This document shows, one piece after another, positions 23,135-29,507 of a stretch of DNA of 64,000 nucleotides. Origin of the DNA: Schmidtea nova (taxonomy: Eukaryota); assembly GCA_044892505.1 (NCBI GenBank), contig CM097883.1, forward strand, positions 115,010,001 to 115,074,000. Reading direction: 5' to 3'. Made by a program: the position numbers and the translations under genes. The first letter of the stretch is position 1, and each line of letters begins with the position of its first letter. The notes below the pieces were generated by a model. That model searched no databases. It had not been told where the DNA came from and worked only from the letters and a program-made list of their open reading frames with translations.

Positions 23135-25648
23135 GTAATGAAATTATCTGTAACCTAATTTAAAATAATTAATTTAAATATATTTAAAACAAATTTTATT
23201 TGTTTCTTTATTCATTTACGTCAATCAATACTATTTACAAGTTGTATTTATATTGCACAAATCAACCATTTTAATAACCAATCAATGATCGAAAGTTTTG
23301 CTAAACTGTTACATTGAAATGATGATAAGGGACATTGAAAATGAGGTAACAGTATATTTGTTATTAGAAATATGTTCGAGTATGAAGCTTTGGCAGATAA
23401 AAACCATCACAAAGTGCGTTCTGTTTGCAATGTTCTGCTACTGGATAAATACATGACAAATTATCATAATATCTGTTTTAATGTATTTTATTTTATTTTT
23501 TAACATTTGATTTCACATATGGTAAAAGTTTTATACGGGTTTTTGAAATTAAAAATAACATATTTTTAAGGTTACGTATATGGGTAGAGCCGGATATGGC
23601 TCAACAATAATTAAGTTTTGGTTTGAAATGTTAATTTTATTTTTTATTAATTTAAATGATTTCTTACTATTCTTAACGTAATACATTGCAATAAATTATT
23701 ATTTCTTGTGTGAAATTTCTTACAAGATTCCACTAGCAAACCTTGTACCGGGCCCCACTTTTGTCCTATATATATATACCAAGGTGTACAAATATGTTAG
23801 TAAAAATAAAATGTAATAAGGCTTCAAAACAAAGATCGAAATTATTGCACATGACAAGAAGATTAAGCAAAAAACCTAATAAAACTTCGATATTAAACTT
23901 TGCAATTCATTTTGATTGTCAATAATATATATTGGATAATAATTGGAAATTTTCTTTTTATACATTATTTTTGATGAAATAAGTAAATTATTTTTATTAA
24001 AAAAATATACATTAAAATCACTATTAAATAACAGAAAGATAAGAACAGCAATGATACACTTATTTTGCACAATTGTTCACTTAAGTGCGTTTACATTAGT
24101 AGTTGTTAATTATGCCAACGAAACACGGGAAAAGGTAGAAATTTTGCCTAAATTTTGGCATAATTAATGAACGAAATGTTACTTTGACTTCTAAAAGCAC
24201 TTTGATATGCCGAATGTGTACATGTAGATAGCAATTTTTTAACATTTATAAATATAGTATTATTTCACAAATTCATATTTTTATTAAAATTTTCAACCTT
24301 TGTCGCCTTTTGACTACGTTTTATATATTTGATCTATTGTCTGAAAATATTTTATCATAAAAAAATACTCAAATCTCTAATAATTCCAAAATAATCAATC
24401 ACGTGGAATAAATGAAGTCTTAAATTTAAAAATTTTATGTAAAATGTGAAACAGTAAACATAAATAATTCCTGAGAAAGAATTTAGAAATTTTGAGTAAT
24501 TTTTTACTTTTATACAACTGAATCAAAATATAAAATTGCTTCCCACGAGATTTTATCTTATTTAAATCCAAAGACCTAGCACTTCTAAAAATCTATTGTT
24601 TGATACTTATGATCAATAGTTATTCAATATAATAAAAAATAATCAAATAACTGATTATTGAGCCCCCTATTGAAGCTAAAGATTTATCATTATCCTTTGA
24701 TTTTTTTAAATTAAATAATTTTTATATTAATTTTTGTAAGAATTTTTTTTGATCTATAATCTTACAAAAATTAAATGAAAATTATGGAATTAAAAGGTTT
24801 ATTTTTGGTATATATTCATATAAGCTAATCGCTGTACAAATTACATTTTTTAAATCGCTCGTAGTTTACATTACTATCAAGCAGCTTTTAAATAATAATT
24901 ATTTTTAATAGTTTAATAATCAAATCGTTTAAAGTTAGAGAACTGACTGAGAAACATACCAGGAAATTTATTCGATTGATCAATATGTAAAATTAACAAA
25001 TTATAATTAACATTGAAAACATAAATTATTGAAACCGTTTCATAACCAATAATGATTCTATAAACAAAATATTTTAATTTGACAATATATCGACGTAAAT
25101 AAATATATTTCAAAGCAATCAATCAAATAAAATTATTATTTACAAAAATAATAGAAAATTTATAAATTAAATGAGCATGTAAAAAATATGGTTTTTAAAT
25201 TCATTTCAAATTTTAAATTAATTTGAATTTACATTAAGTTGTCATTTTAGATTTTAAACAAGCTTATTGAAATAGATAAACTATTTTTTCACTTTTAATA
25301 TTAATTTAGTCTTACAAAATCGTAAAATCTAACTAAAACTTTAATACGAACATAAATATAGTTTATTTTAAAATGTATCCTTAAAAATAAATTATTAATT
25401 AAAATATTTATTAATATATTAAATTTATTGGAATTTTATAGGGTTTCTTAATTTATAGTGTAATCTTTGCATTTAATAGTGCTAATATTTCCTTTAATAG
25501 TATCAATTTTTTATTAATAGTGTTTTAAATTTAATACTAATAAATAAAATATTAACACTAGTGTTGGGCGGGGTATAAGTGTAAATAATAGTGTAAATAT
25601 CAAAGCATAACCGTATACGTATGGGTATATGTATTGTAAATGTTGAAA

Positions 25649-26035
25649 ATGAGAAAAAGAGCATAATGTATATAATATAGAAAAATAAATCAAGAAATAA
25701 CAGAAATGACAATGTTGATGAGATGGAAAATATCATACGATATGTTAGCCAGAGTCGTCAATGAATTGCAAACTCAGTTAACAGCGAAGACTCACTTATT
25801 AACCGAAAGCTACAATTGTAATTTCGAAGGAATCAATAGAATTGAAATGCAACAGAGGCAAATAAATGAATTGTTAAGCGAAAATCAGATGTTGAATGAA
25901 GTAAACAATTGGCAGATAGAGGAAATAAATCGGTTAACGAATCAATAGGACAATGAATTGGATGAAAGTTGGACGACCTGGGCCGTGGACAAGATGAATG
26001 TCAACCCAGAGCCCGATTCCACGAATGGCGTATAG
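25649..26035 (+). pseudogene. Cassette ORF1, short coiled-coil protein
   Basis: One frame from ATG 25649 to TAG 26035 with three internal stops. Heptad-like VVNELQTQL...IEMQQRQINELLSENQMLNEVN. Confidence 0.55.
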
Positions 26036-26121
26036 AAAACAAAAGCGGAAAATTGTACATATATGTAGATATCAAAACCAGAAAAAAATAAAAGGAGAAT
26101 TCATGTAAATATCGTTGTAAA

Positions 26122-27511
26122 ATGAAAACAGAAAATGAGTAAGACTATCAAGGAATCGAAGTATTGAGAGAAGAAAACAGACAATGGGAATAAACAGTCA
26201 CGTCTGGTAACCGAGACAGGCAGCATGTGAATGCAGAATGTGCACCAAACGTATATTACAAATAACAAGTGATGGTAGGACAAATAAATGCCCCGAATGT
26301 GACGAGACAATATTAAGTAATGAGACAAGACCAGATAAAGCAATTCAAAAAGAAATATGGAGTACGAAAACTACTTGTGTAAATCAACTGTATGAATGAG
26401 AAGGACAAGTAATGGAATTCAGACAACATTTGGAAAACAAAAAAGCAAGAAAACGACATGCGAGAAGTGTCAACAAACGATAATAATCAAGAACCAAGAG
26501 AATCATAGAAAAGAGTGCAAAGCGGAAGTAATATCATGTCAATATTGCGATCAAAAGAAAACAAGAAAGAAAATCGAAGAAGAACACCTCAACATAACAG
26601 AAGAAAGAATATGTCACAAGTATATGAAATTATGTCCTAACAATTGCGAAATAAAAGAAGAGGTGATACTACAAGAACATTGGGAACAGTGTTAAACAAA
26701 ACCAAGAAAGTGTAAGTGAAACAAACAATGATGTGGAACAATGAATACGAGAAAGGACATAAAATAACACTTAGAATCGGAAACAGTGCAACACGCGGAA
26801 ATGTTAACCAAAAATCTATACAAGTTAGAGCTAACCATACAGAAATTCGAGAAAGAGATCGAGTCACAAAAGATCATGATGTAATTACTGTTGGAAACAA
26901 GAGAACAATTTGAACTTACAAGAGAGAAGATGATGGGAAAAATAACTGTGATAGAAAAGTTGACCAAAGAAATAAAGGTGCAGCACAATAAAACCGTACG
27001 GGATACGGAAGAAATAGAAAACCTACCAGTTGCACCATATGTATGGAAGATCACAAAATTTACGGATCAATTCATAGCAGCTCAAACTGAAAGACAAATA
27101 TTAGTGACAAGTCCACCATTTTATCTATGGAAGAACGAATACAAAGTCAGAATGAGAATATATCCGAACGGAAATAAAAAAGGAAAAGGGATTCATTTAT
27201 CGCTATTCATTGCATTGTACAAAGGCGGATATGATGACATGTTAGAATGACCACTAGAAGCAAAAGCTTTAATAAAGATTAGAAACTCATGAGAAACAGC
27301 ACAAAGATTGTTTACAACCGATACAAAGCAAAAGGCATATGCAAAACCAACGGAAGAATGTGGATTAACGACATGAGATCCAAACTTCATGTCACAAGAG
27401 AAAGTATGGGAAATGTTATACGACGACAACCAATACGTGGAATTAGAGGCCGGGAAGAGAAAGAGTTCAAATACGACAAGTAGAAAGGCAAAGAGAGGAT
27501 GGTTAGAGTAA
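26122..27511 (+). pseudogene. Intronless TRAF-family (TNF receptor-associated factor) pseudogene
   Basis: RING (PRQAACECRMC...CPEC), TRAF zinc fingers (CEKCQQ...HRKEC...CQYC...H...C...CPNNC...HWEQC), coiled coil, and MATH (YVWKITKF...SPPFY...YKVRMRIYPNG...HLSLFIALYKGGYDDMLE*P...PNFMSQE). Multiple stops and frameshifts. Confidence 0.9.
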
Positions 27512-28771: not shown

Positions 28772-28845
28772 AAGTGGGGAAAAATCATGTATATACATGT
28801 AAAAATCGATGTCAAAATGTAATAACAGTTCTGTAAAGTGAAACA

Positions 28846-29380
28846 ATGAATTGGCTCGTAATCCTATTAATCACAACAATCATAATCCTCTCAACAATCC
28901 AAAACCCTCCAAGAGCAGAGATCCTAAGGAACATACACGACAAGATATCCGAAGAAATCGAAAAGCTATTTAACGAAGTCAAAGAAGAGTTATAACAATT
29001 ATTCCAAAGAGTGAAGCTACTTCCAGAGAATACCCAAACGTTATCAAATCAAGTAGATAAAATTCAGAAGATCCACAAACTATGGCGAGAAAACCAAAAA
29101 CCCGTCAAAAGTCAATCCCAAATCGAAACAGAAACCCAAGAAAAATGGATCATCATGGGAATAATCTTTGACCCTCACAACAAGCATTCTAATCATCGTA
29201 ATCACCTACATCCTCTACAGAATCAGAATCCCCAAACAGAAACAAACAATCATGAATATATCAGCAAGAAGAGATACCAAAACCCAACAAAAAATGAGAA
29301 GTCATCTTACCCCAATTCAATCCAGATATGAATTACGGTCAATTAATGAGAGAACCCAGAATCAACCCTATGCGAGCTGA
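28846..29380 (+). pseudogene. Cassette ORF4, small type I membrane protein
   Basis: Signal-like MNWLVILLITTIIILSTI, helical ectodomain, TM WIIMGII/LTLTTSILIIVITYILY (one frameshift near 29165), and a basic cytoplasmic tail. One internal TAA. Confidence 0.7.
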
Positions 29381-29507
29381 AACATTGAAGAACTTGTATG
29401 GAAACATTATTGTGCATATGTATAAAGCTTCACCTTATGTGATTATTTGTTATTATGTAAATTGCCATTTATCTAATTAACTTTTTATGTATGTTGAAGT
29501 AGGAGGA

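Follow-up and report, generated by a model that had tools for sequence, protein, structure and literature searches.

The stretch of Schmidtea nova DNA described here (GenBank assembly GCA_044892505.1, contig CM097883.1, positions 115,010,001 to 115,074,000 of the forward strand) is 64,000 nucleotides (nt) long and is referred to below as the window. Between positions 25600 and 29400 its plus strand is strongly A-rich and contains four broken open reading frames (ORFs). This region may be the 3' cassette of accessory genes, now decayed, of a planarian long terminal repeat (LTR) retroelement, an identification that is still tentative. Among the extra genes carried by giant planarian retroelements are some for apoptosis and ubiquitin signalling. 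The boundaries of the four genes carry related short spacers, whose common design and possible function are the subject of this analysis.

All four ORFs lie on the plus strand. ORF1 (25649..26035) has 128 codons in a single frame with three internal stops. ORF2 (26122..27511) is an intronless TRAF-type gene, broken by stops and frameshifts, which encodes in order a RING-like domain, zinc fingers, a coiled coil and a MATH domain, the last detected with E 2.4e-12. It is collinear with the 469-residue P0030 across the RING-like, zinc-finger, coiled-coil and MATH parts (416 amino acids against 415 codons, 31-37% identity), and also with the TRAF2-like protein A of Dugesia japonica. ORF3 (27539..28771) occupies several frames and has a charged, coiled-coil-like product. 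ORF4 (28846..29331; 161 codons, one stop) encodes a hydrophobic N-terminus followed by a helical region; its end is uncertain and might instead be at 29380 in another frame. No family scored above the cut-off for ORF3 or ORF4, atlas searches with pieces of ORF1 and ORF4 gave no usable family assignment, and different cassette ORFs had no blastp match to each other at E <= 1. Two of the gene starts differ from those first proposed. The decayed ATG assigned to ORF3 in the original prediction is not needed, because the first long frame of ORF3 has an intact in-frame ATG of its own, at 27539. The ATG at 28817, taken earlier as the start of ORF4, is followed by two stops, and the long ORF4 frame opens at ATG 28846, which stands 14 nt after a TGTAAA at 28832 that was absent from the earlier list of sites. 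An Rfam search over 24000-29500 returned only one match, which was sub-threshold. An imperfect palindrome of about 90 base pairs (bp) is situated at 24705-24795, 800 bp upstream of the cassette.

A polypurine-tract-like stretch on the plus strand (29496..29507, 11 of 12 letters purines) stands directly before the TG of a 792-bp LTR candidate (29508..30299, plus strand), whose ends, TGTATGA and TCATACA, form a 7-bp inverted repeat. A polypurine tract followed by a TG...CA repeat is the arrangement of an LTR retrotransposon, and the two together are read as the purine tract and LTR of such an element. A second LTR and a target-site duplication, which would also be expected, are missing, self-BLAST of 22000-35300 having found no second LTR copy in the window; the fragment may be truncated. 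No giant gag-env-pol frame is present in 21900-25560 or 29500-31400, and a Pfam scan of five frames there gave no match. Eight nucleotides past the LTR candidate is the sequence TGGCGAC (30308..30314, plus strand), which we take to resemble the start of a tRNA primer site; there is no tRNA in the window. If the purine tract before the repeat and the primer-site-like sequence after it (30293-30324) are real, the repeat would be common to two internal regions, as in a tandem or circle-derived insertion. AATAAA is enriched on the plus strand of 29508-30968 (12 against 3.6 expected). The sequence TCGTTGTA occurs just twice in the window, at 26112 in the spacer ahead of ORF2 and at 30100 in the LTR candidate, each time soon after GTAAAT and downstream of AATAAA.

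The spacers, designated S0 to S4 and all given on the plus strand, have a recurring layout. S0 (25560..25648) has a GC-box-like GGGCGGGG followed by TATAAG (25566..25579), elements that we presume to merit the names "GC box" and "TATA"; this is the sole GGGCGGGG in the window on either strand, and it abuts the S0 motifs. These are TGTAAATA at 25580 and 25592 and TGTAAATG at 25635, followed by TGTTGAAA and the ORF1 start, ATG 25649, with which an ATG at 25640 shares its frame. S1 (26036..26121) contains GCGG, TGTACATA at 26054, TGTAGATA at 26064, AATAAA at 26087, TGTAAATA at 26104 and TGTAAA at 26116, directly ahead of ATG 26122. The short S2 (27512..27546) has TATAAG at 27512, AGTAAAC at 27520, TGTAAATT at 27529, ATG 27539 and TGTTAAAA at 27540. 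S3 (28772..28845) has GTGGGG at 28774, then TGTATATA at 28788, TGTAAAAA at 28798, TGTCAAAA at 28810, TGTAATAA at 28818 and TGTAAAGT at 28832, before ATG 28846. The tail, S4 (29381..29495), is a degenerate copy of the module with TGTGCATA at 29411, TGTATAAA at 29419 and TGTAAATT at 29456. Because a copy is thus found also after ORF4, all five boundaries of the four genes are marked.

The cluster of motifs in these spacers is real. It had been described earlier as a set of sites resembling the Pumilio response element, and every string and coordinate quoted in that description is present in the sequence. Exact TGTANATA occurs on the plus strand at 25580, 25592, 25667, 26054, 26064, 26104 and 28788, six of the seven sites being in spacers, and once on the minus strand, at 28797. 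The site at 26064 does match TGTANATA, but it is TGTAGATA, with a G at position 5. Against a background of dinucleotide shuffles (n=3000), the four spacers S0-S3 (286 nt) contain 6 copies of TGTANATA where 0.33 are expected and 8 of TGTAAA where 1.27 are expected, numbers reached by 0 of 3000 shuffles in either case, although both the motif and the spacer limits were picked after the data had been seen. The ORFs (3486 nt) are not enriched (1 against 0.34 for TGTANATA and 2 against 2.03 for TGTAAA). There is also a strand bias, with 12 copies of TGTAAA on the plus and 1 on the minus strand of 25450-29600, but this is partly compositional, since 1.27 and 0.01 are expected in the spacers on the respective strands. 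When all 90-nt windows of the 64 kb are ranked by their density of TGTAnA on either strand, cassette spacers take three of the top four places. The fourth place, at 49144, corresponds to a second cluster, at 49149-49241, where the DNA is T-rich and lies about 110-200 nt past a stop at 49040; it has four TGTAnA, of which two are exact TGTAAATA.

The repeated unit is larger than the octamer. Copies of TGTA(A)AT occur as direct pairs, seven of which, formed by copies with at most one mismatch to TGTAAA, are spaced 9-12 nt apart across S0-S3. A G-rich box lies 5-12 nt ahead of the first copy in S0, S1 and S3, and the corresponding pattern, G[CT]GG-n5-12-TGTAnATA, which was composed after the spacers had been seen, has exactly these three matches in the window. 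The first exact-core copy is 19, 18 and 17 nt past the upstream stop in S1, S2 and S3, respectively, and a TGTAAA is found 10-19 nt ahead of each ORF start. Among the ten pairs that can be formed from S0-S4, four align better than shuffled sequences at p <= 0.01, uncorrected for 22 tests (S0-S1, 0.010; S1-S3, 0.003; S2-S3, 0.005; S0-S4, 0.003), while none of 12 control pairs, in which a spacer was compared with LTR or upstream DNA, reaches this level. All of these comparisons rest on one decayed copy of the cassette. The pairwise alignments bear out the proposal that the junctions between the cassette ORFs share a spacer module, and the spacers probably have a common origin. Patterns derived from the spacers have no other match in the window, partly by construction. 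The letters beside the ATGs are ordinary, as the ORF at 52142, the one control, also has TGTCAAAATG.

The reading that we favour, tentatively and from sequence, is that the module is a duplicated internal start site, giving rise to nested RNAs that end in the LTR. The downstream ORFs of a long LTR RNA require splicing, internal promoters or unusual initiation. According to this reading, one short module would have been copied to each gene boundary as the cassette grew and, as the mark of an internal start site for RNA polymerase II, would open each ORF to ribosomes. Its parts would be the G-rich box, the paired TGTAAAT about one helical turn apart and a transcription start that falls within the last copy or immediately past it; the leader would be very short and the start context AAA-ATG. 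The product would be a series of nested subgenomic RNAs, all terminating in the LTR. Those copies that are exact UGUAHAUA would then fall within the longer RNAs' 3' untranslated regions (UTRs), where binding of Pumilio might be a second effect. The reading is preferred on three observations taken together: no splice acceptors are visible, scanning through the spacers is argued against by the upstream ATGs, and nothing but the module is shared by the sequences beside each start. The spacers have 8 upstream ATGs against 9.3 expected, 3 of the 8 being immediate start-stops; this lack of depletion is what one would predict if ribosomes do not scan most of the spacer as a leader. Exact Pumilio-type sites number 5 in the 284 nt adjoining the starts, and the other non-coding flank (1324 nt) has 0. 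Among retroviruses, foamy virus is a precedent for the use of an internal promoter (PMC7828637).

Several observations weigh against an internal start site, and every promoter function given here to the module is a supposition. The spacers were compared with the published matrix of the putative planarian Initiator (PMC10558129, Table S3), which has a maximum of 14.7 bits. S0-S3 have no GTTT core and their best scores are only -0.5 to -2.8 bits. The best match near the cassette, on the plus strand at 25519..25530, reaches 7.8 bits of the possible 14.7, which is within the top 0.1% of window positions, in DNA of 79-87% AT, and is weakly indicated as a possible upstream start site; lying 60 nt ahead of the first motif, it would place all of the motifs in the RNA. 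The implied leaders are only about 7-15 nt long. The distance of 17-19 nt from the stops in S1-S3 ties the copies to stops as well as to starts, and the copy after ORF4 has no following ORF. The cluster at 49149-49241 is as dense as the spacers but lacks their relation to ORF starts, and would fit a 3' UTR element acting in RNA. The 17 stops in 904 codons of this single copy correspond to a decay of about 10-13% substitutions per site. Finally, the extra ORFs of LTR elements, such as the ORF3s of rotifers, are typically expressed through spliced RNAs in the account of PMC5408684.

The original prediction had the sites tuning the downstream ORFs as RNA elements for Pumilio. More generally, they might be read by Pumilio or another UGUA-reading protein, affecting stability or translation, and be kept where they are free of coding constraint. 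Five spacer sites, in S0, S1 and S3, do fit UGUAHAUA on the coding strand, as does one more in ORF1, and position 5 shows A, C and U, in keeping with a report that PUM2 does not discriminate there (10.1101/403006). The paired spacing could accommodate two proteins, the sites are mostly unstructured (fold z from -0.66 to 1.12 for the five spacers), the module is present also after the last ORF, and the comparable cluster at 49149-49241 has a 3'UTR-like location. DjPum acts in neoblasts; the further statement that planarian Pumilio is needed for their maintenance agrees with what a review says of DjPum (PMC5855632). If transcribed, the spacer sites may well be bound by Pumilio. That tuning is their purpose is not supported, since the exact sites, of which S0 and S1 have two each and S3 one, are missing from S2, S4, the 164-nt 3' tail and the 1160 nt upstream; the 792-nt LTR candidate has one. 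Only one of the four start-proximal copies is exact, and the exact site is thus not the shared unit of every junction. The 13 TGTA sites, about 5.6 of which are expected by chance, match the consensus at positions 5 to 8 in 9 (A), 11 (A), 8 (T) and 8 (A) cases, so that positions 7 and 8, which Pumilio reads, appear to be kept no better than position 5. Each of these two positions differs in 5 of 13 sites, more than a decay of 12% would give (p 0.014 each), a figure that is to be read with the same number of chance TGTA in mind. About 90% of the strongest PUM2 sites are reported to fall in 3' UTRs (10.1101/403006), repression fails to explain access to the downstream ORFs, and, by one published account, BURRO1 RNA is enriched in the intestine, neoblasts silence transposons by two layers, and RNAi of smedwi-2 raises transposon RNA (PMC8532177). 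A role as Pumilio elements is therefore possible but not favoured, the start-site reading being the more likely of the two on sequence grounds. It is unlikely that both are true, with each 35-90 bp unit copied to a boundary acting on the next gene as a micro-promoter and, where it falls in the tails of longer RNAs, as a Pumilio site; such virus-like gene-junction signals would couple a captured TRAF gene to the RNA control of the host's stem cells.

The remaining explanations are less likely. It is improbable that the module has no present role at the inner junctions and is a relic of cassette assembly, built up as template switching doubled the stretch ahead of the purine tract whenever a gene was captured. 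The fence-post arrangement of five copies around four genes and an S0-S4 alignment of about 60 nt that includes letters outside the motif are as such a history would leave them, but the motif, its spacing and its distance from the starts are kept between ORFs that are mutually dissimilar, which suggests selection. Also improbable is a single polycistronic RNA in which the module lets ribosomes reinitiate or enter internally between cistrons. At 17-19 nt past stops and 10-19 nt ahead of starts, the motif sits close to where a ribosome footprint would end, and the candidate at 25519 could be a single start in AT-rich DNA like that of planarian constitutive and neoblast promoters (PMC10558129). 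However, the eight upstream ATGs, three of them start-stops, precede the starts, none of the five folded spacers has structure above shuffles (no z beyond about 1), and the module is found before ORF1 and after ORF4, where no intercistronic signal is needed. That the sites are 3'-end processing signals, CFIm-bound UGUA plus AAUAAA, ending the RNA of each ORF was an alternative allowed for at the outset. S1 has the usual order of UGUA, UGUA, AATAAA, CA and a GU-rich stretch, and of the only two copies of TCGTTGTA the one at 30100 is downstream of two AATAAA in the LTR candidate. This alternative is nevertheless weakened to the point of being very unlikely: AATAAA shows no enrichment in the spacers (1 against 2.04 expected), its one copy being that at 26087 in S1, with none in S0, S2, S3 or S4, and planarian poly(A) sites are described as being without an upstream UGUA, CFIm59/68 not having been found (PMC5068929). 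Least probable of all is that the sites bind forkhead or other enhancer-type factors with no fixed relation to the starts, or are splice or trans-splice acceptors. The idea that the motif doubles as a forkhead site was also raised in the original prediction; the forkhead core consensus is RYAAAYA, which fits just 3 of the 13 TGTA sites and is missing from the other 10. Planarians do trans-splice (PMC10899757, PMC7346339), and in S2 TTAG stands directly before ATG 27539, but S1 and S3 have CG where S2 has AG, and all 16 spacer AGs have only 6-39% T in the 18 nt upstream, with no U-rich tract.

No other copy of the cassette turned up in the collections searched. An HMMER search with the MATH piece of ORF2 found 1291 TRAF/MATH proteins, given without genomic context. 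None of 7 pattern matches in viral contigs was confirmed as a relative of the MATH piece, nor any of 91 in metagenome contigs, nor any of 76 among longer proteins found by word index; P0030 has no close relatives in the protein index (6 matches). Motif scans of viral contigs gave no match with one pattern and three with another, all in one homologous coding stretch and attributed to chance. Three metagenome matches to a 20-nt pattern spanning the purine tract and LTR were rejected, as they have 53-65% GC and no flanking similarity. Between 83 and 99% of the sequence words were found in four sequencing runs from one study, with no RNA run among the matches. A literature search, which did not cover Grohme 2018 and Repbase entries, yielded no description of such a junction motif.

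An intact single-ORF FoxA gene at 14987-16444, 92% identical over its length to DjFoxA of Dugesia japonica and so in keeping with a planarian host, lies about 9 kb from the cassette and has TTTAG directly before its ATG. At 45200-46800 the minus strand carries a decayed gypsy-type fragment with RNase H and integrase that has no link to the cassette. Fragments resembling reverse transcriptase (RVT_1, E 3.8e-05) occupy 42762-44683, with 15-nt tandem repeats at 43363-43600. What we take, from their motifs, to be a mariner-like transposase in two ORFs and a hAT-like transposase remnant are found at 5109-6148 and, on the minus strand, at 31159-32800, respectively. Further strongly A-rich, coding-like fragments are situated at 36200-36830 (minus strand) and 970-1570; blastn and tblastx comparisons of these with the cassette showed no similarity.

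At 35-90 bp the module is small enough to be tested easily with planarian NanoLuc reporters, which now work both as plasmids and as mRNA (PMC13563047). Should it be a promoter, it would give a compact tool to work on an animal that has few transgenic parts; should it be a Pumilio cluster, a retroelement would be linked to the control of neoblasts.

The boundary module appears to be new, whereas the accessory cassette that bears it would be of a known kind for planarian LTR elements. The nearest described elements appear to be Burro/GYPSM1, giant gypsy-like LTR elements of Dugesiidae (Jurka 2007, Grohme 2018) that carry MATH/TRAF domains and accessory ORFs (PMC6431247). Like the cassette, they are planarian and have MATH/TRAF and coiled-coil cargo. 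According to the same report, the D. tigrina relative has its MATH domain in a separate accessory ORF, as is the case here, and decayed fragments are known from D. japonica, as the present cassette is decayed. In Burro, however, the TRAF ORF is said to precede the polyprotein on its upstream side, whereas here the cassette abuts the purine tract and LTR-like repeat; the available part of that description mentions no junction motif, and in the window no gag, pol or env is attached to the cassette. The Pumilio response element (10.1101/403006; PMC5855632) is resembled in that five exact coding-strand matches are clustered in weakly folded RNA. Unlike that element, the cassette sites crowd by the starts and are missing from the true 3' tail and from one spacer, and the module has a G box and a fixed spacing, which Pumilio does not need. 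Like the putative planarian Initiator (PMC10558129), the module is oriented and AT-rich, with TG among its first letters and TAAATA at its end, but the near-invariant GTTT core of the Initiator is absent from all four spacers. Foamy virus and the LTR elements with rotifer ORF3-type genes (PMC7828637, PMC5408684) are alike in carrying additional genes, located between pol and the 3' LTR, for which separate RNAs are needed. These elements are reported to use one internal promoter or splicing, whereas the planarian cassette, with no acceptor-like sequence, has a module repeated at each gene boundary.

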